Assembly (NCBI GenBank): GCA_019056805.1
Contig: DXJG01000003.1
Coordinates: forward strand, 27,712 to 59,711
DNA: 32,000 nt
Reading direction: 5' to 3'
From: Candidatus Baldrarchaeota archaeon
GTDB lineage: Archaea > Asgardarchaeota > Baldrarchaeia > Baldrarchaeales > DXJG01
Shown here: positions 4,781 to 30,184 of the stretch, in pieces
Layout: every line of letters begins with the position of its first letter
Position numbering within the stretch: the stretch's first letter is position 1
The notes under the pieces: generated by a model
What the model was told of the DNA's origin: nothing
What the model saw: the letters and a program-made list of their open reading frames with translations, nothing else
Database searches by the model: none
Position numbers and translations under genes: made by a program

Positions 4781-5022
4781 GTGATAATCCCGGTCCGATA
4801 CTGGCGCTCCAATTGAGCTTAGATGGGGCGCCAGCGGAAAGCTTTACATGCGGGAAATTAATCGCTGATAAGTGGGAAGAATTTGCACGACGTGTAAGAC
4901 AAGGCGAAGATCCAAAACAAGTATTAGACGACTTAGGCATTAAACGATATTGTTGTAGAAGAATGCTTCTCAGCCACGTAGACCTAATAGATGAAATCTT
5001 AGATTTTAGCCTACCCACCTAG
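4781..5022 (+). CDS. rpoN: DNA-directed RNA polymerase subunit N (Rpo10), spliced: join(4781..4799,4841..5022), 66 aa
   Basis: SD GAGGTG (4768-4773) and GTG at 4781. Exon 1 encodes MIIPVR plus T; exon 2 begins GC TTT ACA TGC. The join gives [18 protein letters not shown]...[11 protein letters not shown], the canonical Rpo10 with a Zn-binding CxxC and CC. The ORF-track call at 4771 reads through the intron and lacks the first Cys. Confidence 0.93.
4800..4840 (+). other. 41-nt BHB-type intron in rpoN pre-mRNA
   Basis: Central helix UCCG(4794-97)/CGGA(4835-38), 3-nt bulges AUA(4798-4800) and AAG(4839-41), 11-bp inner stem CUGGCGCUCCA/UGGGGCGCCAG (one G-U). Cleavage after the 2nd nt of each bulge restores the Cys codon T|GC. 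Unspliced frame stops at TGA 4814-4816. Confidence 0.9.
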
Positions 5023-5097
5023 ATACGAAAACTTTTTATTGCAAAAATTTGTTTCTTTTCGCACCCTATATATTTAGTTATCCTATGGAGGGTTTAA

Positions 5098-5721
5098 ATG
5101 AGCGAAGAAGTCGTTGAAGACTTATTAATTCCACTTGAACAATATCTAGCAGCAGGTATTCACATCGGTACTAGAATTAAAACAAGATCAATGGCTGATT
5201 TCGTATACAGAGTTAGACCTGACGGTCTTTATGTATTAGATGTTAGAAAAACAGATGAAAGAATTAGAATAGCTGCAAAAATGTTAGCCAGATACGAACC
5301 ACATAGAATTCTTGTTGCATCAGCCAGACAGTATGGACAAAAACCCGCTAGAAAATTTGCCGAGCTCATCGGGGCTCACGCCATAGTGGGCAGATTTGTA
5401 CCTGGAACATTAACGAATCCCGCCTATCCAGGATACTTAGAACCCAGTATACTCATGGTTACAGACCCTAGAGCGGATAGACAAGCAGTTAGCGAAGCAA
5501 TAGAAGCTAGAATACCCGTAGTAGCACTTTGCGACACGGATAACATTACCGCAAATGTAGACTTAGTTATACCCACAAATAATAAAGGACGTAAAGCACT
5601 AGCCCTTATATACTGGCTATTAACTCGCCAAGTCTTAAGAGAAAGAGGAGAAATACCGCCAGATGGAGAGCTTCCTACACCCATCGAAGAATTTGAAACA
5701 AAAATTATCCTTAAAACCTAA
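5098..5721 (+). CDS. rps2: 30S ribosomal protein S2
   Basis: [67 protein letters not shown]. Confidence 0.98.
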
Positions 5722-6030
5722 TTAACACTATCGAATTACTACCTATCCATGTATAGTTTCGTTCTTTTTTTAAGAAAGCAAGAACTGGTAAAATAATTTT
5801 CATTAAAAACATTCACAAACACATTTGAGAATATACTTACGCACCTATAAGAAATAATATTGCCAATTTCTCGAGAAACTGCTGTAATATAAATTTTCTC
5901 AACTAAAAATATGTACTTTTCTTTTTCTTCATTTTTCATAGCTTAGTTAAAATACGATTCATTTTTAAATTAATTATAGCCTAATTTCAGCATATAACCA
6001 TAATAAAATCTGACAAGAGGACGTATTAAC

Positions 6031-7011
6031 ATGTTGAATAAGGTTGTAGCTTCTGCTCCCGGTAAAGTTATCCTCTACGGGGAGCATAGCGTTGTTTACG
6101 GTGAACCAGCCATAGCCATAGCTTTATCAAAAAGAGCATATACAACAGTTTATCCTCTAAATACATCAACGATAGAAATCAATGCAGTAAATTACGGAAT
6201 AAAAGCAGAATTCCCTCAAGAAAGAAAAAAGATAGATCTAAAACGCAAAAAACTTAAAATTTTACAACCAATCTGGGAAGCATGTCTCCAAGTCCTAGAA
6301 TACACAAATACCAAACAAGGCTTAAAATTAAGAATAGAATCCGAAATTCCCAGAGGAGCAGGACTCGGATCCTCTGCCGCAGTAGCAGTATCAACAATCA
6401 TGGCCGTTAGTACATTGATTGGAGCAAAATTCCCTTTACAAATAATTTCAAAATTAGCTTATGAAGCTGAAAAAATAGTTCACGAAACTCCAAGTGGTAT
6501 AGATAATACAATAGCTACATTTGGAGGGGCAGTCCTCTTTCAAAAAGGAAATATCACAAAAATAAATGTAAAAGAAAACATTCCACTAGTGATCGGAGAC
6601 ACTGGAATAGAAAGAGTAACTAAACAACTTGTATTAAAAGTTAAATCCCTTAAAGAAAAATACAATGACATTATAACGTCAGTAATCAAAAGTATTGGCT
6701 TAATAATACCCAAAGCATTAAAAGCACTAAATGAAGGAGATCTACTAACACTCGGAGAGTTAATGAACATCAACCAAGGACTACTAGATGCATTAGGAGT
6801 CTCAACAAGAGAAATAGCTAAATTAATCTACGCAGCAAGAACTGCCGGCGCATATGGAGCAAAACTCACCGGCGCTGGAGGCGGAGGATGTATCATAGCA
6901 TTAACCTCGCCAGAAAAACAGAAAAAAGTCGCAGAGGCAATAGAAAATGAGGGTGGAAAACCCTTAATAACAAAAATTTCCATAAAAGGGGTCAAAATTG
7001 AAGAAAAATAA
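6031..7011 (+). CDS. mvk: Mevalonate kinase
   Basis: APGKVILYGEHSVVYG, GHMP motif IPRGAGLGSSAA, PSGIDN, GAKLTGAGGGG. Confidence 0.95.
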   Translation: MLNKVVASAPGKVILYGEHSVVYGEPAIAIALSKRAYTTVYPLNTSTIEINAVNYGIKAEFPQERKKIDLKRKKLKILQPIWEACLQVLEYTNTKQGLKLRIESEIPRGAGLGSSAAVAVSTIMAVSTLIGAKFPLQIISKLAYEAEKIVHETPSGIDNTIATFGGAVLFQKGNITKINVKENIPLVIGDTGIERVTKQLVLKVKSLKEKYNDIITSVIKSIGLIIPKALKALNEGDLLTLGELMNINQGLLDALGVSTREIAKLIYAARTAGAYGAKLTGAGGGGCIIALTSPEKQKKVAEAIENEGGKPLITKISIKGVKIEEK

Positions 7012-7795
7012 CTTTGTAATTCTTAAATTTGGAGGTAGTGTAATTACAGATAAAGAAAAACCTTTCAAGGCAAGAGTAAATGTAATAGATCGATTAGCAA
7101 GGGAAGTATCTGAATACGAAGGAAAAATGATAATTATACACGGCGGAGGTTCATTCGGACATCCTGTTGCCCATAAATATAAGATAAAAGACGGCTATAA
7201 GGAGAAACAACAACTTATTGGGTTCGCGAAAACCCATTCAGCAATGCAAAAGTTAAATATTATAGTTACACAACGATTAATTAAATACGGTGTCCCAGCG
7301 GTTTCTGTACCTCCTGTTTCAACAACCCTTAGCCAGGATGGGATCATAAAAAAACTAGAATGTGAAACAATAGAACGAATGCTAAACATAGGACTCATCC
7401 CGGTTCTCTATGGGGATACAGTACTTGACATGAACATGGGATTTACAATAGTTTCGGGAGATCAAATAGCATCCCATTTATCTATAAAATTCAATGCAGC
7501 ACAACTAATTTTTGTTCTAGACGTAGACGGCTTATTTACAGACGATCCTCGTAAAACTCCCGAAAAAGCAAAATTAATAGAAGAAATTGATGTCCAATCT
7601 CTTAAAAAAACAACAAATATCTTTGAAAGAAAGGGAGGAATTGATGTTACAGGTGGAATAGCTGAAAAAGTTAAGTGGATAATACCTGTAGCTGAAAAGG
7701 GAATACCCGTTATTTTATTAAATGGTAATGTTCCTGGAAGACTTAAAAAAGCACTAACAGGAGTAAAAACGGTCGGAACTTACATTCACGGTTAA
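6998..7795 (+). CDS. ipk: Isopentenyl phosphate kinase
   Basis: ILKFGGSVITDK, IHGGGSFGHPVA, PVLYGD, VSGDQI, DVTGGI (amino-acid-kinase fold). Lies between mvk and fni. Confidence 0.93.
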   Translation: MKKNNFVILKFGGSVITDKEKPFKARVNVIDRLAREVSEYEGKMIIIHGGGSFGHPVAHKYKIKDGYKEKQQLIGFAKTHSAMQKLNIIVTQRLIKYGVPAVSVPPVSTTLSQDGIIKKLECETIERMLNIGLIPVLYGDTVLDMNMGFTIVSGDQIASHLSIKFNAAQLIFVLDVDGLFTDDPRKTPEKAKLIEEIDVQSLKKTTNIFERKGGIDVTGGIAEKVKWIIPVAEKGIPVILLNGNVPGRLKKALTGVKTVGTYIHG

Positions 7796-7822
7796 AATTT
7801 GAAATAAAAAGGTGAAGTATAC

Positions 7823-8998
7823 ATGACTGATGCAATAAAGGGAAACAAGCAAAGTTGTCGTATAAATCGGGAAAGTGAAATAACTGAAGGAAGAAAAATA
7901 GAACATATACTTATTTGCTTATCAAAAGATGTTATAGCAAAAGAAAAAACCACAGGACTTGAAGATGTTGAATTTGTTCATGTTTCTCTTCCCGAAATAA
8001 ATAAAACTGACGTAGACACATCAATTAAACTTTTAGGCCACGAATTGGCAGCTCCAATAGTTATTGCAGCTATGACAGGGGGACACCCCAAAGCGGCCAA
8101 AATTAACGCAACGTTGGCAGAGGCTGCTCAGAAACTAAATATAGCTATGGGAGTGGGGAGTCAAAGAGCTGCCTTAGAGGACTCTTCCCTAGAATACACC
8201 TATTCCATAGCACGAGAAAAAGCTCCTGACATTCTTCTAATAGGAAATATAGGAGCACCACAAATATTAGAGGAAAATAGAATCGAAAATATTAGAAAAA
8301 TAATAGAAATGATAGATGCAGATGCTGTAGCAATACACCTCAACGCTCTTCAAGAAGCAATTCAACCAGAGGGAGAAGCCACATTTAAAGGAGTAGTTTC
8401 AGCTATCAAAGACATAGTAGAAAAAATAGAAGTACCTATAATAGCTAAAGAAACTGGCGCTGGTTTTGCAAGAGAGGAAGCAAGATCTCTAGAGAAAATC
8501 GGCGTAAAAGCAATCGATGTAGGAGGAACCGGAGGCACAAGTTGGGCAGCTGTTGAAACTTATAGAGCTGAAAGTCGTGGAATGCATTTTGCTGCAAGTA
8601 TAGGTAAGACATTTTGGGACTGGGGAATCCCCACAACTATAAGTACGATTGAAACAGCTTTTTTCACAAACAACATTGAAATTATAGCAACAGGAGGAGT
8701 TAGAACAGGTCTAGATGCAGCAAAATTAATCTCACTTGGTGCCAATGCTGTAGGTATATCTCTACCACTACTAAAACCCGCATATGAAGGAAAGGTAGAA
8801 AAACTAATTCAAATTCTACAGAAAGTTATCGAAGAACTTAAAATAGCTATGTTTCTTGTTGGAGCTTCTAAAATAGATGACCTAAAAAAGGCCGACATAA
8901 TAATTATGGGAAGAACAGCTGAATGGTTAAAAGCTAGAGGCTTTGATGTAACAATATTTGCAAACAGGAGAAAGCAACAAATGGAGAAAATAAAATGA
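7823..8998 (+). CDS. fni: Type 2 isopentenyl-diphosphate delta-isomerase (FMN-dependent)
   Basis: RKIEH, AMTGG, GVGSQR, HLNALQEAIQPEG, KETGAG, GGTGGTSW, WDWGIPT, ATGGVRTGLD. Confidence 0.96.
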   Translation: MTDAIKGNKQSCRINRESEITEGRKIEHILICLSKDVIAKEKTTGLEDVEFVHVSLPEINKTDVDTSIKLLGHELAAPIVIAAMTGGHPKAAKINATLAEAAQKLNIAMGVGSQRAALEDSSLEYTYSIAREKAPDILLIGNIGAPQILEENRIENIRKIIEMIDADAVAIHLNALQEAIQPEGEATFKGVVSAIKDIVEKIEVPIIAKETGAGFAREEARSLEKIGVKAIDVGGTGGTSWAAVETYRAESRGMHFAASIGKTFWDWGIPTTISTIETAFFTNNIEIIATGGVRTGLDAAKLISLGANAVGISLPLLKPAYEGKVEKLIQILQKVIEELKIAMFLVGASKIDDLKKADIIIMGRTAEWLKARGFDVTIFANRRKQQMEKIK

Positions 8999-9495
8999 AA
9001 ATACCACAAGTATATGTCGAAATACCACAAATAGAATTCGAAAAATACATTGAAAAGGGAAAGGCAAAAACAAATCTAGTTGTTATTTTACCTGAAAAGA
9101 AAATAGAAATGTGGATAAACAAAGGAGAAGATATTCCAGACATGAAAAATGTTAAGGTTCTAATTCAAAAGATTTATGATACAGCTCATCAGGAAATATT
9201 CGATTTAGAGAAAGGAGAGGTAAAAAAGGACTGTATCATTATTTATCCAGACAGGAGAACACAAATTAGGTTGAAAAAAGGAGACAGAGTAGCAATAGTT
9301 GAAGCAAAAGGTTATATAGTTCAACCATATGCCGAACTAGGCAACAGAGTATTTAAGGAACTTCAACTTGCAGCAATAATTACAAAAAAGGGTGAAATAC
9401 GCTACGTGAGATCCCCAATAAGAGGGACCGTAATATACGTAGCGGAATTACATCAAAAGCCCCAAACAATAATTTTCTTTATATTCCCCGAATAA
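8995..9495 (+). CDS. DUF2118-like protein
   Basis: MKIPQVYVE N-terminus and C-terminal G.RV...LAAIITKKGEIRYVRSPIRGTVIY hairpin-barrel pattern. ATGA overlap with fni. Confidence 0.7.
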   Translation: MKIPQVYVEIPQIEFEKYIEKGKAKTNLVVILPEKKIEMWINKGEDIPDMKNVKVLIQKIYDTAHQEIFDLEKGEVKKDCIIIYPDRRTQIRLKKGDRVAIVEAKGYIVQPYAELGNRVFKELQLAAIITKKGEIRYVRSPIRGTVIYVAELHQKPQTIIFFIFPE

Positions 9496-9591
9496 ACCTA
9501 TTGGCGCATTTTGAATCTAAAATAATCTCTCTGCAGGTGAAAATTACACCTTACTGTCATTGTGACTTATAAAAAGAAATAACACTCATGT

Positions 9592-9780
9592 TCATTCCTT
9601 TTTCCATCGCAACGTCCATTTCAATTTTCTTGGATCTCTTTTCATCTCTATTAAGGACTTTCTGCACTTACTTGAACAGAACCAATATACCGTACCATCA
9701 TTTTTAACGTACATCATTCCAGTTCCAGGTTCAATATCTCCTCCGCAAAAAGAACATTTTTGAACCTTTACCATAGTCAT
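9592..9780 (-). CDS. rpl24e: 50S ribosomal protein L24e
   Basis: [21 protein letters not shown]...[15 protein letters not shown]. Confidence 0.97.
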
Positions 9781-9784
9781 CCCC

Positions 9785-10003
9785 TTATCTTACAACTATC
9801 TTTCTAGCTTCTCTTTCAGTTTCCCTTAACATTAAGATGTCCCCTAGTCTAACGGGGCCCTTTACATTCCTTGTAAGAATCCTATTTTTATCTCTTCCTT
9901 CTAATATTCTGACTCTAACCTGCGTGATTTCTCCAGTAACACCAGTACGACCAATAATTTGAATAACTTCCGCGGGGGTTCCTCTATCTACCTCTGAACT
10001 CAT
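9785..10003 (-). CDS. rps28e: 30S ribosomal protein S28e
   Basis: [46 protein letters not shown]. Confidence 0.98.
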
Positions 10004-10244
10004 GAAGACACCTCCAACACAAGCAGTTCCATGAATACTTTAGTTCCCATACGTGTCATGATACGTTTTTAGTTTTTAAATATAAGTTGCTGGCAACTAT
10101 TTTACTTCATTATCTTTTTAAATTTACTGTCAAATATCCGCAAAAGGATAGTGCCCTATTAAAGGTAAAATCGAAAAATTCATAAATAAACTGTAGTATC
10201 CATAAACCGCCGATGAGAAATGACGATACCGGAGGGAGGCTTCA

Positions 10245-10613
10245 ATGGCAAAACCACCTTACGTAAAATTTACCGTACCTAAGGAGCTAGCTGAGAAAGC
10301 ACTGGAAGCTTTGGAGATAGCCAGAGATACAGGACAGGTAAGAAAAGGAACCAATGAAACAACTAAAGCTGTAGAGAGAGGAATAGCAAAACTAGTGTTA
10401 ATTGCCGAAGATGTAGATCCACCAGAAATAGTAATGCACCTACCTATTTTATGCGAGGAGAAGAATGTACCATACATATACGTACCAAGCAAACAGCAAC
10501 TTGGATCAGCCGCTGGAATAGATGTAGCAGCAGCCTCAGCATGCATTATAAATCCTGGAGACGCCAAGGATCTTGTCCGCGAAATAGTAGAGAAAGTAAA
10601 AGAATTCAAATAA
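10245..10613 (+). CDS. rpl7ae: 50S ribosomal protein L7Ae
   Basis: [39 protein letters not shown]. Confidence 0.98.
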
Positions 10614-10708
10614 AACACGAACAGCCCTCAAATTTAATCTAATTTTATTTACTAATTTCTTCCAAGTTTAATACGTCCTACCTACAACCTTAGTAATGGG
10701 AGATAAAA

Positions 10709-11155
10709 ATGGAAAGAACACTTCTAATTGTTAAACCTGACGGGGTTGTTAGGGGATTAATAGGCGAAGTTATATCTCGTGTAGAAAGAAAAGGACTAAA
10801 AATCGTAGCCCTAAAAATGATGAAATTATCTAGAGAAAAAGCGGAGGAACTATACAGTGTCCACAAAGGAAAACCATTCTTTCAAGAATTAATTAACCAT
10901 ATAACTTCAGCGCCAATAGTTGCAATGATTCTAGAGGGTGAAAACACGATTCAAATTGTTAGAAACATGATAGGTGCAACTGACCCCTCCAAAGCAAACC
11001 CTGGCACTATCCGCGGTGACTATGCTTTAACCATAACTAAAAATGTAGTACATGCTGCAGATTCGCCAGAAAACGCAGAAAGAGAAATAAATGTAATCTT
11101 TGGAACAGAAAAACCAATAGAATATGAACGTACCGATGAAAATTGGCTTTATTAA
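10709..11155 (+). CDS. ndk: Nucleoside diphosphate kinase
   Basis: [44 protein letters not shown]. Confidence 0.97.
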
Positions 11156-11337
11156 ACCAAAACTCTTAACATTTTTATTTATATTTTATGTAAAAACTAC
11201 AAAAAATATGTTCTTTTATGTAAGGATTACACGTAAAGTATTAAAAGGATTATAAAATAGTAAGGTCGATACTATTTTCGCTTCATTAACTTAAAGAGAA
11301 AATCAAAAATTATTGAATTTTATAGGAGGCTATTGAA

Positions 11338-13149
11338 ATGGCTCTCAGACAACCAATTTGCGTTGTACTTGGCCATATAGACCATGGGAAAACAACTCTA
11401 CTTGATAAAATTCGCGGAACAGTAGTTCAGTTAAGAGAAGCCGGGGGCATAATCTAGCCAGACAGCTCTCTGGCTAGATGCCAAACCCAACATATAGGAG
11501 CATCGTTCCTTCCAGCCGAAGTCATAGAAAAAATATGTGGTAAACTTTTAGAAAAATTTAATATTAAAATTACAATTCCAGGAATTTTAATTATAGATAC
11601 ACCGGGTCACGAAGCTTTTTATAATCTAAGAGCTCGTGGGGGAGCTGCAGCAGACTTCGCCATCCTTGTAGTTGATGTCATTGAAGGATTTCAAACACAA
11701 ACCTGGGAGTGTATAAATATTTTAAAATCCAGACGGGTACCTTTCCTTGTAGCTGCAAACAAGATAGATAGAATTCCAGGATGGCAACCTAACCCGGGAG
11801 CACCTTTTCTTGAATCTTTTAAGAAACAAAGTCCTCACGTTCAAAAATTTCTAGACGAAAAAGTCTACGAAATCATGGGTTCACTATCAACAGAAGGTTT
11901 TCAAGCCGAAAGATTTGATAGAGTTAAAGATTTTACAAAAACAGTTGCTATTATTCCAACAAGTGGCAAAACAGGTGAAGGCATACCCGAACTTCTTGCA
12001 GTTTTAGCCGGTTTAACTCAACGTTATATGAAAGAGAAATTAAAAGTTGTAACAGGTCCTGGAAAGGGAGTTGTTCTGGAGGTTAGAGAAGAACCCGGAT
12101 TAGGTTTGACTCTTGACGCCATTATATACGATGGTATCGTAAGAAAGGGAGACATAATCGTAGTTGGCGGTCTAGATGGTGTAATAGTCTCCCGAATCAG
12201 ATCTCTTCTCCAACCCAAACCTCTTGATGAAATAAGAGATCCAAGAGATAAATTTAATCCAGTTGATCAAGTTGTCGCAGCAGCTGGCGTTAAAATAGTG
12301 GCCCCAGATCTTGAAGGGGCTGTTGCTGGGTCGCCGATACGAATTGTCTGGGATGAATCAATAGTTGAAGAAATTGAAAAAGAAGTTGAAGAAGAACTCG
12401 AAAAAATAAGAATATCAACTGATAAAACAGGAACAATCCTTAAAGCTGACACTCTCGGTTCTCTAGAAGCTATAGTCAACTATTTTAGAGAAAGAAATAT
12501 TCCGATAAGAATGGCTGATGTCGGTGATGTTTCAAAAAGAGACATAATGGAAGCTATTGCAGTAAAAGAAAAGGATCCATTCCTCGCCGCCATCCTAGCT
12601 TTTAATGTAAAAGTTCTTCCTGATGCTGAGGAGGAAGCTAGACGCCATAATATACCAATATTTAAGAGCAACATTATATATAGGCTTTTCAACGACTACG
12701 AGGACTGGTTAATAAAGAAAAGAGAAGAACAAAAGAAAAAGGAACTAGAATCCCTTATAAGACCTGGAAAATTCAAAATATTACCCGGGTATGTGTTCAG
12801 GAGAAGTAAGCCGGCAATAGTCGGTGTCAAAGTTCTTGCTGGCAAAATACAGCCAAAATATTCACTAATTAACTCAGACAATCAGAAAGTAGGGTCAATA
12901 CTTCAAATACAAGATAAAGGGCAAAACATTAAAGAAGCTACAAAAGATATGGAAGTTGCAGTATCAATTAAAGGGCCAATTGTTGGACGACATATTAAAG
13001 AAGGGGACGTACTATATGTAGATGTTCCTGAATCCCATGCAAGAATATTATTAACAAAGTTTAAAAATGATCTAACAATTGATGAAATCGAAACTTTGCA
13101 GGAATTGATTGAAATAAAGAGAAAAGAAAAACCCTTCTGGGGAACATAG
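11338..13149 (+). CDS. infB: Translation initiation factor 2 (aIF5B), spliced: join(11338..11451,11485..13149), 592 aa
   Basis: SD AGGAGG and ATG at 11338. [27 protein letters not shown] (G1), EAGGI|TQHIGA (G2) after removing 33 nt, IDTPGHEAF (G3), ANKID (G4). Frame is continuous into the ORF-track fragment 11875..13149. Confidence 0.95.
11452..11484 (+). other. 33-nt BHB-type intron in infB pre-mRNA
   Basis: Outer helix GGG(11443-45)/CCC(11486-88), central helix GGCA(11446-49)/UGCC(11479-82), bulges UAA(11450-52) and AAA(11483-85), perfect 10-bp inner stem UCUAGCCAGA/UCUGGCUAGA. In-frame TAG at 11455-57. Canonical cleavage joins ATA|ACC (Ile-Thr). Confidence 0.92.
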
Positions 13150-20923: not shown

Positions 20924-21146
20924 AATTCACTGTAAGAATGAAAAACATGCAGAAATACTTCAAAAAATTCTATCAATAGAAGATAAATTCGCACCCCCCA
21001 CAATAAAAGTAGAAACCATTTCTCAACAAAACTATATCATATCAACAATCAAAGGCCGAGAAAAAGTTGAAACCATACTCTCAACTCTAAACGATATTTT
21101 TGAAACAATAAAGTTAATCAACAACATTTACAGCATAACCGAATGA
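20889..21146 (+). CDS. pcc1: KEOPS complex subunit Pcc1-like
   Basis: 85-aa protein ending TLNDIFETIKL, in the conserved slot between the RecJ-like gene and rps3ae. Confidence 0.7.
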   Translation: MKILNKIILTVRIHCKNEKHAEILQKILSIEDKFAPPTIKVETISQQNYIISTIKGREKVETILSTLNDIFETIKLINNIYSITE

Positions 21147-25274: not shown

Positions 25275-25352
25275 GCGGGGCTAGTCTAGCCTGGACTAGG
25301 ACGTCGGCCTTCCAAGCCGATAACCCGGGTTCAAATCCCGGGCCCCGCACCA
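25275..25352 (+). tRNA. tRNA-Gly (anticodon TCC), intron-less, CCA encoded
   Basis: Acceptor GCGGGGC/GCCCCGC, anticodon arm TCGGC-CTTCCAA-GCCGA, T arm CCGGG-TTCAAAT-CCCGG, ACCA end. Confidence 0.97.
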
Positions 25353-25840
25353 TCAACACTCCCTTCTCAGTTTCCCTCCTAATCACGTTTTTCAAGACTC
25401 CATTTCTAATTTTAAAACATTTTTCGGCTTAATTACATACTTTTTAACTCTTATTTTTCGTAATAAAATATAGGAAGAATTAGATGTTTTTGACACGCAT
25501 AAACCAAGATGAATGATATAAAAGTGCAAATAGGGAAGTAAATACGTACTAACGTATTTTATACACATGAACTATTAACATGTTGAATAAAAGGTATCAG
25601 TTAAATTTATAAAATCCCTGGATTTTGTCCATCGCCTTTACATATATCAAGGAAATGAAAAGACTTCAAATCAAACCAAAAAATAATTATAGATTAGATA
25701 GACATTTTTATGCAACCTAAGTTTTTTGTCAATTATTAATCTGTATTTTGAAGCTTATACACGAGTTTTCGAGTTGTCATGTATTTGCATATTTAAACTT
25801 TCTGATCAAATTGTTTATTGAGGTGTTTGGAGGGAGAGCT

Positions 25841-28800
25841 ATGAAAATCAAATCAAAATCAACTATTTTGATTTTTATAGTTCTCCTAATGGATTTTTCA
25901 GCAATTGGACTCATCTCGACGAGTGAAGGTAAAGTCCTAGATGCACTCTCAAGGATAAAAGAGCCAAAAATCTATATCAATAGTTTAAATCCAAGTTTTC
26001 AAGAATTCAAAAATGGAACGCCGGCGAAAATTTGGGAGGAGGAAATAATTGGTAGAATAGTAGTATCTCCACTCGGCAATACTCCAAATACCGGTCAAGG
26101 CATAACACTAAACTCAAATATTGAAAATAATTGGACTACGGGGATAAACGCAACAGGATATTTAAGTGAAGATATTGAAGAACTCTACGAGAAATCTATT
26201 GAGAACATTAATCGTACTGGAACACTTGTTTTAGCATTTTTAGCAACAGACATCGAAGTTTTAAATGAAACATTATTCAGCGATGAAAGAACAAGAATAG
26301 TTATAGACGAAATTTTAAGATTCGCAGAAGAAGTCGGAGACGCAGCAATAATCCTCACAGGAAACTACTGCACAGCAAAAATCCTAATGTACATGTTATG
26401 GTTGACTGAGAGAGATAGAAGAATAAATGAAATTTACCTCGTTGTTTTAACTCATGGAGTTCTAAATGAGACATCACAGATCCATGGAATGTTAATGCAT
26501 GGAGAAAACGGTGTGGCTGTTGTAAATGGTGAAACGTTGAAATATTTAGCTAAAATTTTAAGGCTAAAACGATTGGATAAACTGAAATTTGTATATTTAC
26601 CCTTCTGTAACATGGGAAGAGAGAAAGAAATCCACAGTGACAGTTCTGTTGTAGCTTTCTTCGAAGAATATAGCAAAGCCCAAATACTAACCTACGAAGG
26701 AGAAACATACTTAAACGGAGAATACATTGCTTCAATTCAATCCATTTTATCTTCTGGAACCTACGAACTGATCGAAGAAAACGTATATTTTCCTGTTCAA
26801 GTTATCGACAATTTCACAAGCCAGACGGTAGAAGGCTACCTTGAGTTTACAGTAATTGACGAGATTGAAGAGTTAAACTCCACAATTAATCCCTACGAAA
26901 TTTATGATAGTAATGAGAATGTGACATTAGGATCCAGATTTAGACATGAGACTACCTCTGGGGGCAACTATAGAGTTACCGTTCATGGAAAACGTGTCAA
27001 AGCCACAATTCACCACGGAACTCCACCAAGAAGCTACATGAGGAAGAAACTTAAACATATAAGTTACCAGGTTCCACCAAAATGCAAAACCTTCGGTGCA
27101 AGAGGCCCAAAAATAGATTTCAAGCATAAAGCTAAAAGCATACCTCTTGTTGCCGGAAGATTTTGGAAACCACCAAAATCCGAAAAGAAATATTTTGGAA
27201 ACAGCCCTGTGGGGAAACTTAGAACTAGCATCGATGAGATTAAAAGAACAATTTTAATCGTTGATGAAATTTTCAACACGATCTACAAAAACTACTACGA
27301 AATTAAACACGCAGTTTACAGATGGATTGATGCAACATTTAACGCTCCATGGAACAAATGGATGCGTGGACCAATAAAAACAACATTGGATAATACTGTT
27401 TTCCGTGGAGCAAACTTCATAATAAATTTTGCAAAACAATATTTAAAAACAATTATTTGCATAGCCTACAATTTGAAAAACTCTGGAGAAAGCCTTGGAG
27501 AACTTGTGGCAGCCTTAATAATTGCCGCAATAGCAAAACTCGCAAAAGGAATACTAAAATACTTCTCATGGACAATAAACAAACTCCTAAAAACACTATC
27601 AAACGTCTTAGGCGTAGATTTATCATGGGTTAAAAAGATTTTAGATAGCTGGATAGATCCAAATATAAAGTTTTTAGATAATGCTGTCGCTTATAGCGAA
27701 TCAACATTCAAATCTGCCGCTCAAAAATTTACAAATGCAATAATAAAACCATTCAACTGGATATGGAACCAAATAAAGAACCTATTCGACACACTATGGT
27801 CTAACTTTATTGATTTCTCTGTCGACAACTATTTGACTTTGGCCTATTTGTTAAGTGAGCTTGCAGTTGAAGGAAAACTTCCTGAAAAACTTGTAAGATC
27901 TATTATGAATAACGCTGGCAAAATCCTAGACTTCATAATAAGCATACAACCCATAGAAAAAAGATTAGAATCATGGTTCAAGATTTACTATGTTTGGCTT
28001 ACATCTGCCCTTATAGCCGGCAAAATAAGAATAGAAATACCTGAATCATGGAAAACAATTGTAAGCAGAGATGTAGAAAAAACCAATAAGATGGCGAATG
28101 GGAGAGTTGAGAATCTTCATAAAACACTGTACGACATTCTCGGAGACAAAGTAAAACATACAAATTTGCTAAGAATGGACGATGTAATGATAGTATTTAG
28201 AAGAGGTTTATCAAATATAAAATGGCGTGACGTTCATTTTCCCGAAGAAATAATTGGTAGAATTGAGAGAATCGTATTAAACAAAGAACTAATTGAAAAA
28301 CTCAAAGATAAAAAACTTGTAGAGATAGATGAGAACGGTAAGATCAAGCGTATTGTGCTTGACTACGATAAAACTGGTAGGAAGTTCCATTACTGGTATG
28401 GAGAAGTAAATATAGTCCAAGTGATTCATACACATATCGATGGAAAACCTGTTGCCTTTGCAATAGTATGGGAAGGATACCTAAACTGGTTCACTGATCC
28501 CGACGAGGATAAAAATCTTAAAAATTCAAAAGATAAATACTTCGAAGAAAGAATTAAAGACGGAATATTTTACGGGGAAAATGGAGACATTAGAGCTTTA
28601 ATGAGCGAATTTAAACCTTGTAAAGTCGAAACAGAAGACTTTACACTAAAAGGTTACAGAATAGTACTAGGACTAAAAATAAAAGTAACACCTGGTAAAG
28701 AGGGAATCAATGTTAGAACACTAGAAGATAAATTCGATGAAAGCTACAAGAAACTGATTCCCACGGAACTAGTTCAAAAATTAATCGAGAGCAATCCAGA

Positions 28801-30184
28801 ACTTAAGAAAAAATTTGAGAGTAAAAGACGTGTAGAATTCCTTTACAGGTTTGATAACGGCCTAGGAATTGATGACGGAGTATTAGGTAGAGATTGGATA
28901 AGTAAGATTGGAAAAGTTGAGCAGTTAGTAAAAACACAAGTAGACTTCTGGAATAAATATGTAGAAAAATGTAAGGTCGAAAAAGGTAAAATGCCAAACT
29001 TTTTTGACACCGTAGCTCAATCGATTCTCGAAATACATCCCGTAATGACGGATAACACTGTTGAGACAGTTATAAAGCTATGTGATCCACCATTCCTCAA
29101 TGAACCACCCATGGCACATACAGAATTAACCTTAACGCTCAAAAAAGTATCAGAGAGATTAAATATTGAAGGACTAAGTGAACAAAAAAGTTCTGTTGAG
29201 GATATCAAGATAAAAGTGGAAAACTACATTAAAGAGAATTTTGGAGAATTCTATGAAAAAGTACATAAAGAATTTCTACAAAAAATCGAAGAAATAGAAG
29301 GAAAAGAAAGAGCTAAACTTGAAAAAACTAAATCAGCTGATGAAATCAATAAAATACTTAGTAAACCCGTTAATGAAGTCAGCAATAAAATATTTGAAGG
29401 AAGCGGTTCATGGAACTATGAATTACTTGATACGGTAAGGAAAGAAAGATACGAACTAAGATCCAAAGCAAGAAGTGAAATTTACAGTGGAAATCTGAAT
29501 AAGATTGTATCTGATGGAAATGTTGAGAAAATTTTCGTTGAGTTACCAACTGACCCACAAAAAGAAGGAGTAAAATTTTTGACAGGGCACATCGAGAAAT
29601 CATTGAAATCAGAGAAGATTAAAAGTGTTTACAAGAAAATTCTTGGAAAAGCATGTAACATGGGTACATCAACAATATTTATAGTCATTTTTGTAACAGC
29701 AAGCTTCTTGGGAACTAGATTTGGAATGGAAATCTATAATATTTTGCCCGAAGACGCTAAAACTACTTTAAAATCTGGTTCTCAAAAATTCAAGGTTTAT
29801 ATGTTACTAGCATGCGTTAGTTATGCTTTAGTAAACGTAGATGATTATCAAGATTTTACAAAAGTCATTAAACGCGTAAAGGACGAGGGAACATTGAAAG
29901 ACGTTGCAAAAGTCTTACTACAAACATTTCTAGGCTGTTTGTTAAACGGCATATTAATAGGGATGCTTCTAGAGGAAGAAGGCGACATTATTTTAGCTGA
30001 TGAAATTATACCCTACATTGCGAGAACCATATTTGGAAACAATGCATGGATATTTGAAAAAATTATATGGCCAATTGTGGACACAACAGTTCAAATTTTT
30101 GGAAATGGAGGACCAATAATGTACTTAGCAGGAACAGCGATAGGATCCATTGTAATACAAATATTACAACAAGTAATAAATTAA
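25841..30184 (+). CDS. Large (1447 aa) putative exported/membrane protein with caspase/CHAT-like His-Cys motif
   Basis: SD GGAGGGAG and ATG at 25841. Basic plus hydrophobic N-terminus, LVVLTHG...FVYLPFCNMG, amphipathic helical middle, hydrophobic C-terminus. Confidence 0.75.
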   Translation: MKIKSKSTILIFIVLLMDFSAIGLISTSEGKVLDALSRIKEPKIYINSLNPSFQEFKNGTPAKIWEEEIIGRIVVSPLGNTPNTGQGITLNSNIENNWTTGINATGYLSEDIEELYEKSIENINRTGTLVLAFLATDIEVLNETLFSDERTRIVIDEILRFAEEVGDAAIILTGNYCTAKILMYMLWLTERDRRINEIYLVVLTHGVLNETSQIHGMLMHGENGVAVVNGETLKYLAKILRLKRLDKLKFVYLPFCNMGREKEIHSDSSVVAFFEEYSKAQILTYEGETYLNGEYIASIQSILSSGTYELIEENVYFPVQVIDNFTSQTVEGYLEFTVIDEIEELNSTINPYEIYDSNENVTLGSRFRHETTSGGNYRVTVHGKRVKATIHHGTPPRSYMRKKLKHISYQVPPKCKTFGARGPKIDFKHKAKSIPLVAGRFWKPPKSEKKYFGNSPVGKLRTSIDEIKRTILIVDEIFNTIYKNYYEIKHAVYRWIDATFNAPWNKWMRGPIKTTLDNTVFRGANFIINFAKQYLKTIICIAYNLKNSGESLGELVAALIIAAIAKLAKGILKYFSWTINKLLKTLSNVLGVDLSWVKKILDSWIDPNIKFLDNAVAYSESTFKSAAQKFTNAIIKPFNWIWNQIKNLFDTLWSNFIDFSVDNYLTLAYLLSELAVEGKLPEKLVRSIMNNAGKILDFIISIQPIEKRLESWFKIYYVWLTSALIAGKIRIEIPESWKTIVSRDVEKTNKMANGRVENLHKTLYDILGDKVKHTNLLRMDDVMIVFRRGLSNIKWRDVHFPEEIIGRIERIVLNKELIEKLKDKKLVEIDENGKIKRIVLDYDKTGRKFHYWYGEVNIVQVIHTHIDGKPVAFAIVWEGYLNWFTDPDEDKNLKNSKDKYFEERIKDGIFYGENGDIRALMSEFKPCKVETEDFTLKGYRIVLGLKIKVTPGKEGINVRTLEDKFDESYKKLIPTELVQKLIESNPELKKKFESKRRVEFLYRFDNGLGIDDGVLGRDWISKIGKVEQLVKTQVDFWNKYVEKCKVEKGKMPNFFDTVAQSILEIHPVMTDNTVETVIKLCDPPFLNEPPMAHTELTLTLKKVSERLNIEGLSEQKSSVEDIKIKVENYIKENFGEFYEKVHKEFLQKIEEIEGKERAKLEKTKSADEINKILSKPVNEVSNKIFEGSGSWNYELLDTVRKERYELRSKARSEIYSGNLNKIVSDGNVEKIFVELPTDPQKEGVKFLTGHIEKSLKSEKIKSVYKKILGKACNMGTSTIFIVIFVTASFLGTRFGMEIYNILPEDAKTTLKSGSQKFKVYMLLACVSYALVNVDDYQDFTKVIKRVKDEGTLKDVAKVLLQTFLGCLLNGILIGMLLEEEGDIILADEIIPYIARTIFGNNAWIFEKIIWPIVDTTVQIFGNGGPIMYLAGTAIGSIVIQILQQVIN

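Follow-up and report, generated by a model that had tools for sequence, protein, structure and literature searches.

Protein-coding transcripts spliced through bulge-helix-bulge (BHB) motifs have been described for few archaeal genes, and a 2023 review counts 'at least two', cbf5 and HVO_1309 (PMC10485636). The intron of the cbf5 pre-mRNA is known from Crenarchaeota (Aeropyrum, Sulfolobus; Watanabe 2002, Yoshinari 2006, Yokobori 2009, PMC2738675), and a spliced mRNA form of HVO_1309 was detected by RNA-seq in Haloferax volcanii (Schwarz 2020, PMC7714728; discussed in PMC10485636). Here we analyze a 32,000-nucleotide stretch (the window, always taken at its full length) of contig DXJG01000003.1 from an Asgard archaeon, Candidatus Baldrarchaeota archaeon, in which rpoN, encoding an RNA polymerase subunit, and infB, encoding the initiation factor aIF5B, are each interrupted by a short insert. 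We conclude that both inserts are very probably archaeal BHB introns in protein-coding mRNAs, which the splicing endonuclease EndA would cut and the ligase RtcB would join.

In the searchable literature we found mRNA BHB splicing in archaea described for cbf5 and HVO_1309 only, and nothing that connects Baldrarchaeia with introns. In the text of a study on Asgard tRNA introns, the term 'mRNA' has zero occurrences (bioRxiv 10.64898/2026.10.13.758758). The initial annotation of this DNA, made from the sequence alone, had left the novelty of rpoN and infB as intron hosts to a literature check, and neither is described as such in the literature that we could search.

Two interrupted genes in one window

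The genome under study (G000) is a 1.92-Mb Baldrarchaeia metagenome-assembled genome (MAG) of 18 contigs, with 91% completeness and 3.6% contamination. Together with four further genomes (G001–G004) it forms a set of five from two families, which we used for both introns.

The first insert lies in rpoN. Exon 1 (4781-4799, +) comprises 19 bases, from a GTG start immediately preceded by a Shine-Dalgarno-like GAGGTG through codons 1-6 and the first base of Cys7; it is also present in G001–G004, with an ATG start in G004. The 41-nt insert (4800-4840, +) shifts the frame and contains an in-frame TGA. Exon 2 (4841-5022, +) extends up to and including the stop codon, and it matches positions 7-58 of the 58 positions in the Pfam profile RNA_pol_N (E = 6.8e-28). 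In the predicted BHB, exon bases 4794-4797 (TCCG) pair with intron bases 4835-4838 (CGGA) in a 4-bp central helix, flanked by bulges at 4798-4800 (ATA) and 4839-4841 (AAG) and followed by an 11-bp inner helix (4801-4811 with 4824-4834). The outer exon-exon helix has 2 bp, one G-C and one G.U, a relaxed BHB form on the exon side. A cut after the second bulge base yields MIIPVRCFTCGK (RpoN), in frame.

The second insert lies in infB. Exon 1 (11338-11451, +) starts at an ATG with GGAGG located 5' of it and holds 38 codons, which include the G1 P-loop GHIDHGKT and cover positions 4-27 of the Pfam profile GTP_EFTU. The 33-nt insert (11452-11484, +) has a frame-preserving length and carries an in-frame TAG. 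Exon 2 (11485-13149, +), of 554 codons and a stop, carries GTP_EFTU, GTP_EFTU_D2, IF-2 and GTP_EFTU_D4, and the two exons together cover the GTP_EFTU domain in order. Here the motif is a complete hBHBh', made up of a 3-bp outer helix (GGG/CCC; 11443-11445 with 11486-11488), a 4-bp central helix (11446-11449, GGCA, with 11479-11482, TGCC), bulges at 11450-11452 (TAA) and 11483-11485 (AAA), and a 10-bp inner helix (11453-11462 with 11469-11478). Joining gives an aIF5B of 593 amino acids in which LREAGGI meets TQHIGASF.

The canonical cut, after the second base of each bulge, falls precisely on the junctions that the protein alignments require for both genes. The predicted junctions agree with Pfam profiles and with uninterrupted orthologues (23 other Asgard loci). 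Each BHB appears in the unconstrained minimum-free-energy fold of its insert, with z = -3.1 for rpoN and z = -4.0 for infB against shuffles. In a scan of the 1.92-Mb genome, both introns rank among approximately the top 20 of 56,590 loosely defined BHB candidates. Their stems bear no sequence resemblance to one another. The initial annotation had proposed two BHB introns with dissimilar stems and exact BHB geometry; the inserts, their folds and the restored frames agree with it, as does the unrelatedness of the stems, and the geometry is exact in the central helices and opposed 3-nt bulges of both, but not in the weak outer helix of rpoN.

Conservation of structure rather than sequence

The same annotation had suggested surveying related MAGs, and we found rpoN and infB interrupted at the same sites in G001–G004. 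The rpoN intron occupies an identical site in 5/5 genomes, and its core, TCCG[AUA]...CGGA/G[AAG], is kept across all of them. The five inner helices (CTGGCGCTCCA, CTGACATTGCACTCAA, CTGATGTTGCGCCCA, CTGACATTGCACC and CCACCGACG) measure 9-16 bp and differ in sequence, yet each pairs with its partner strand at every or almost every position. The infB intron is common to the five genomes at the same codon; in G002 a C:G pair of its stem has been replaced by T:A through a double change, and in G004 the stem is wholly different. Structure rather than sequence is kept, with inner helices that differ at most positions and still pair, next to a conserved core helix and bulges.

Independent assemblies agree with these observations. 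A contig from the metagenome of a different study spans the rpoN intron without a single difference, and in this comparison no intron-less DNA form of rpoN was seen. Both introns also occur in MAGs whose titles point to other samples. Metagenomes that contain this DNA are of subsurface and marine/hydrothermal origin, and a look for RNA runs matching an 8.6-kb segment, or infB by itself, gave none. Each host gene appears once in G000: rpoN has a single match, and infB is single-copy, as the other aIF5B-like matches are weak GTPase paralogues only. Exon 2 of aIF5B retains 89-90% amino-acid identity within the genus.

Farther afield, an aIF5B orthologue was found in 41/41 Asgard genomes searched, and infB is uninterrupted at 23 loci from other Asgard families. 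Among the matches listed from a Pfam RNA_pol_N scan of 300 genomes of the phylum, rpoN is uninterrupted in the best-scoring genomes.

At least twelve predicted introns in one genome

The initial annotation had raised the possibility of many short mRNA introns in this genome, and a BHB scan combined with junction homology supports it. We compared 751 non-overlapping homologous gene pairs between G000 and a closed 1.42-Mb Odinarchaeum-like Asgard genome (G005), which served as the intron census reference. A candidate was counted when a BHB motif was present and the reference aligned without gaps over the predicted junction. A lenient homology filter returned 400 matches, mostly spurious, and the strict subset alone was retained. 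With rpoN, the census comes to at least 12 BHB introns of 22-49 nt in 9 genes; this is a minimum, since the junction test misses short exons and genes that have no counterpart in the reference.

Besides rpoN and infB (C10:39163-39195, +, 33 nt; coordinates outside the window are given by contig), the hosts are pyrG (C9:155012-155043, -, 32 nt), atpD (C6:168431-168466, +, 36 nt), pcm (C17:48225-48255, +, 31 nt), a porG-like gene (C6:49473-49507, +, 35 nt), a GTPase-like gene with the junction MGAAGRD to FHNFN (C17:158950-158971, -, 22 nt), glyA and fbp. Three introns interrupt glyA, at C6:44186-44213 (-, 28 nt), C6:44097-44122 (-, 26 nt) and C6:43400-43428 (-, 29 nt), and two interrupt fbp, at C17:208556-208585 (+, 30 nt, in frame and with no stop) and C17:208921-208969 (+, 49 nt). 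The junctions of the ten introns beyond rpoN and infB align ungapped to intron-free reference genes, and across the exons of the census genes Pfam profile positions run on contiguously. In glyA (serine hydroxymethyltransferase; C6:42886-44426, -), introns 1 and 2 are separated by a 64-nt exon encoding 21 residues. If unspliced, fbp intron 1 would add 10 residues (KLAAIMAARP) within a conserved block; stop-free, in-frame introns of this kind give no frameshift or pseudogene signal and would go unnoticed in standard checks.

We also counted, genome-wide and independently of homology, every hairpin followed by a 5' bulge of n nt and then a 4-bp helix. A 3-nt bulge gave 104 matches, against 56-72 for bulges of 1, 2, 4 or 5 nt, and with a stricter stem the count was 61 against 23-31 for the other bulge sizes. 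This amounts to approximately 35 motifs over background, tRNA introns counted in. When BHB candidates were counted by whether their excision would fuse two open frames, decoys with shifted cut sites gave equal numbers, and in this genome the measure has no discriminating power.

Several further genes were considered as hosts and set aside. On checking, psmA, gltX, SMC and GlyRS proved uninterrupted, and the gap in a CDC48-like gene is a run of N. The break in hypF (C6:58216-58220, -), inside the acylphosphatase motif GVGFRPF, is a shift of 1 nt that has no convincing BHB near it; probably it is either genuine or an error of sequencing or assembly. Candidates in PolB, an Fe-S protein and an acetolactate-synthase-like gene had no usable reference alignment.

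The 12 inserts share several traits. All have the BHB geometry, with a GC-rich 4-mer forming the exon side of the central helix. The intron starts with A in 11/12 cases and ends with AA in 9/12, and intron GC content is 39-59% against 35% for the genome. Taken modulo 3, insert lengths fall in each of the three classes, and stops are found in most inserts. There are 9 copies of the tetranucleotide CTAG among the 392 intron bases, where 1.1 would be expected from the genome, and all lie inside stems, in five introns (infB, pcm, fbp-1, pyrG and atpD). The GC-rich 4-mer may explain why the introns sit in conserved motifs rich in Gly, Pro, Ala or Arg, although verification also favors conserved junctions. 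The CTAG excess and the A and AA ends could reflect a common origin, or a preference in insertion or recognition.

Intron ages and other Asgard lineages

The introns differ in their distribution. Those of rpoN and infB are common to both families, whereas, judged by open-frame lengths, those of pyrG, glyA and atpD occur in same-genus genomes but are absent from the sister family and from G010. The last, with G020, represents another Asgard family, and in both genomes infB is interrupted at another codon, by a 29-nt BHB intron. It lies after the P-loop lysine, between GHIDHGK and T, approximately 90 nt 5' of the QHIGAS codons. This is an independent gain in the same gene.

The census reference has at least two introns of its own. 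In G005, a 29-nt BHB intron (C1:852786-852814, -) splits a radical-SAM gene between CxxxC and xxC, and another of 29 nt (C1:827298-827326, +) lies in gcvPA, where AYTP would be joined to YQAEASQG. Because the distributions differ and G005 holds its own introns, we conclude that introns have been gained (or lost) repeatedly. Further split alignments in G005 are found at 795535-795564, 535633-535668 and 1251260-1251405. When a small-GTPase-like gene of G005 (C1, ~21035-21053, -) is aligned with nine G000 paralogues, its frame changes by -1 at one and the same position each time; the gene may be recoded there, or may be a pseudogene with a frameshift.

From these data we consider it moderately probable that Asgard archaea carry a pervasive and still turning-over population of EndA/RtcB-spliced mini-introns in protein genes. 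They would number approximately a dozen to a few dozen per genome, would have been gained independently, by different lineages and at different depths, would sit at GC-rich codons of conserved motifs, and would be largely missed by gene callers.

Splicing enzymes and tRNA introns

The initial annotation had tied expression of the interrupted genes to EndA and RtcB, and both are encoded in G000. RtcB has a family match with E = 3.7e-183, and EndA is present as two paralogues, in the regions C9:197884-198129 and C9:13779-14039. The paralogue of 184 amino acids has the catalytic Tyr/His/Lys and is closest to the catalytic subunits of crenarchaeal heterotetramers (3P1Z_B from Aeropyrum pernix, 3AJV_B and 2ZYZ_B); its N-terminal loop region aligns ungapped to 3P1Z_B. 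The paralogue of 178 amino acids is without the catalytic His. By homology, the enzyme is of the two-subunit alpha-beta type. Two EndA paralogues occur in 44/60 Asgard genomes (bioRxiv 10.64898/2026.10.13.758758), and the loop region of catalytic EndA widens the substrate range (PMC5829648). By its resemblance to such enzymes, G000 EndA would have broad specificity.

We propose the following mechanism. The pre-mRNA would fold locally, with four exon bases paired to the last four paired intron bases and a 3-nt bulge on each side. In each bulge a heterotetrameric (alpha-beta)2 EndA would cleave on the 3' side of the second base, and the exons would then be ligated by RtcB. The joined mRNA alone would encode RpoN with its first zinc-binding Cys, and aIF5B with the P-loop joined to switch I.

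In this 91% complete genome ARAGORN found only 18 tRNA genes, 12 of them with introns, and strong BHB matches adjoin T-arm-like sequence at C9:4557-4585, C9:265586-265615 and C9:38684-38711, among others. This suggests that non-canonical introns hide many tRNA genes. Heavily interrupted tRNA genes are known from Asgard archaea (bioRxiv 10.64898/2026.10.13.758758), and the ARAGORN result fits that picture. The only tRNA gene in the window, tRNA-Gly (25275-25352), has no intron, as the initial annotation had stated, and an Rfam search of the window returned tRNA as the sole match.

Genomic setting and further BHB-like elements

The window is an information-processing region of a kind typical of archaea, in which L13, S9, rpoN and S2 are followed by mevalonate-pathway kinases and the genes for an L7Ae/L30e-family ribosomal protein, NDK, aIF5B and S6e. 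A 19-bp near-perfect hairpin (25833-25891, +) stands approximately 85 nt inside a 1478-codon open frame (25748-30184). It has the top score among BHB-like matches genome-wide, and its removal would disrupt the long frame. The true start of this gene may lie downstream of the hairpin.

Three related elements of 79-99 nt were found elsewhere in the genome, at C9:185819-185917 (+), C18:35013-35101 (-) and C9:441627-441705 (-). They are bounded by a good BHB, GGTG[AAA]GGCTCCGTC...GACGGAGCCCACC[AAA], and share a C-rich core, CCCCCCTCCTCCCCCT, which includes an anti-Shine-Dalgarno-like CCTCC. An Rfam search of the three gave no match. These elements may represent a small RNA excised, and perhaps circularized, by EndA.

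A strong BHB of 42 nt with an 8-bp outer helix (C6:114510-114551, -) lies exactly between frames of 777 and 183 codons, which are CODH/ACS alpha- and epsilon-like. Its excision would alter the last 10 C-terminal codons of the 777-codon frame, and it could be an intron, a processing site or a chance match.

Alternative explanations

The BHB motif, exact frame restoration, conservation with covariation, single-copy hosts and the presence of both enzymes support splicing of rpoN and infB, and we infer that cutting and ligation take place in vivo. Four points weigh on the other side. Splicing of the transcripts is predicted from DNA sequence. The 2-bp exon-exon helix of rpoN, with its one G.U pair, would need the broad-specificity enzyme that homology predicts. 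Intact second copies could in principle lie in the unassembled part of a MAG that is 91% complete and has 3.6% contamination. Lastly, a single reference genome underlies the census, and the statistics on joined open frames are by themselves non-discriminating.

EndA cutting could instead be mainly regulatory or degradative, so that splicing would be partial and condition-dependent or the mRNA would be destroyed. Yeast TSEN, which cuts mRNAs without ligating them (review PMC10485636), offers a precedent for such cleavage, and dosage control would be plausible where the hosts encode a subunit of RNA polymerase and a translation initiation factor. We found no uninterrupted copy of either gene, however, and productive ligation must therefore occur for the cell to live, which makes a mainly regulatory or destructive role unlikely. 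The sequence itself is neutral as to regulated efficiency. Whether productive splicing also couples tRNA maturation to gene expression is a matter of speculation.

Alternatively, the inserts could remain in the mRNA, with the ribosome bypassing them, shifting frame or reading through the stop. Hairpins of similar size accompany known bypassing, as in phage T4 gene 60, and the inserts of infB (33 nt) and fbp-1 (30 nt) keep the reading frame. Against this, infB is without matching take-off and landing codons (ATA before the insert, CAA before resumption), and the G004 insert carries in-frame TGA and TAG. Stops in most inserts and lengths in all three classes modulo 3 are likewise at odds with ribosomal passage. 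All 12 inserts (12/12) have the BHB, and canonical endonuclease cuts alone give the correct junctions; bypassing needs neither. Translation across retained inserts is accordingly very improbable.

That the interruptions are pseudogenes or assembly or sequencing artefacts of an 18-contig, incomplete and partly contaminated MAG, in which ordinary defects such as the hypF frameshift and the run of N in the CDC48-like gene do exist, is hardly credible when the inserts recur at the same codons in four other genomes from two families, the rpoN insert is identical in the contig of an independent study, the host genes are essential and single-copy, their exons are under strong purifying selection (as in aIF5B exon 2) and the stems show compensatory change.

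Other classes of intervening sequence were also considered. Group I or group II introns and inteins were rejected: the inserts measure 22-49 nt, whereas a ribozyme core needs hundreds of nucleotides and an intein an in-frame protein-splicing domain, and the window gives no Rfam match besides the tRNA. BHB introns in protein-coding mRNAs, cut by EndA and joined by RtcB, remain the explanation that we favor.

Implications

Endonuclease splicing of mRNA in Archaea has so far been treated as a curiosity. Here a single genome holds at least 12 predicted introns in 9 housekeeping genes, and other Asgard lineages, related and unrelated, have their own sets. If this reading is true, split protein genes and obligatory mRNA splicing would be regular features of the archaeal group nearest to eukaryotes, with a bearing on the origin of tolerance for interrupted genes. 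Essential information-processing genes, for an RNA polymerase subunit and for aIF5B, would then depend on the tRNA-splicing machinery.

There are also practical consequences. Genes interrupted in this way can be expected to be annotated as truncated, as frameshifted or as pseudogenes, or to acquire extra residues unnoticed. Such miscalls distort completeness estimates, metabolic reconstructions and the alignments of phylogenomic markers, among which are rpoN and aIF5B. The introns further offer a defined group of natural substrates other than tRNA on which (alpha-beta)2 EndA could be tested.

Comparison with known systems

In eukaryotes, the mRNAs of HAC1 and XBP1 are cleaved by IRE1 and ligated by Trl1 in yeast or by RtcB in animals. 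As in the genes described here, a short intron in a coding mRNA is removed independently of the spliceosome, by an endonuclease acting at stem-loops followed by a tRNA ligase. IRE1 is not EndA/TSEN, however, its motif is another one and its role is in a regulated response to stress; the parallel does not imply that the introns are homologous. The BHB introns of archaeal tRNA and rRNA have the same motif, predicted cut positions, enzymes and A-rich bulges. In the genes described here, by contrast, the substrate is mRNA, and codons make up the exon side of the motif.

The cbf5 intron is likewise short, lies in coding sequence, forms a (relaxed) BHB, is cut by a heteromeric endonuclease with ligation of the exons, and is associated with (alpha-beta)2 EndA. 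Orthology with it was considered and rejected: the hosts are other genes, and cbf5 itself is uninterrupted in G000 (C10:25410-25751, within a 364-amino-acid open frame). The introns described here are analogous to that of cbf5. Unlike it, they are hosted by rpoN, aIF5B and 7 other genes, occur in Asgard archaea rather than Crenarchaeota and are many per genome, with up to three in one gene and a 64-nt exon in glyA; their splicing is predicted from sequence. HVO_1309 shares with them a BHB in mRNA that is cut by the splicing endonuclease. It is a single euryarchaeal case with an alpha2-type enzyme, whereas the Baldrarchaeia genome has multiple introns in coding sequences, and conserved protein motifs are restored only when these are removed.

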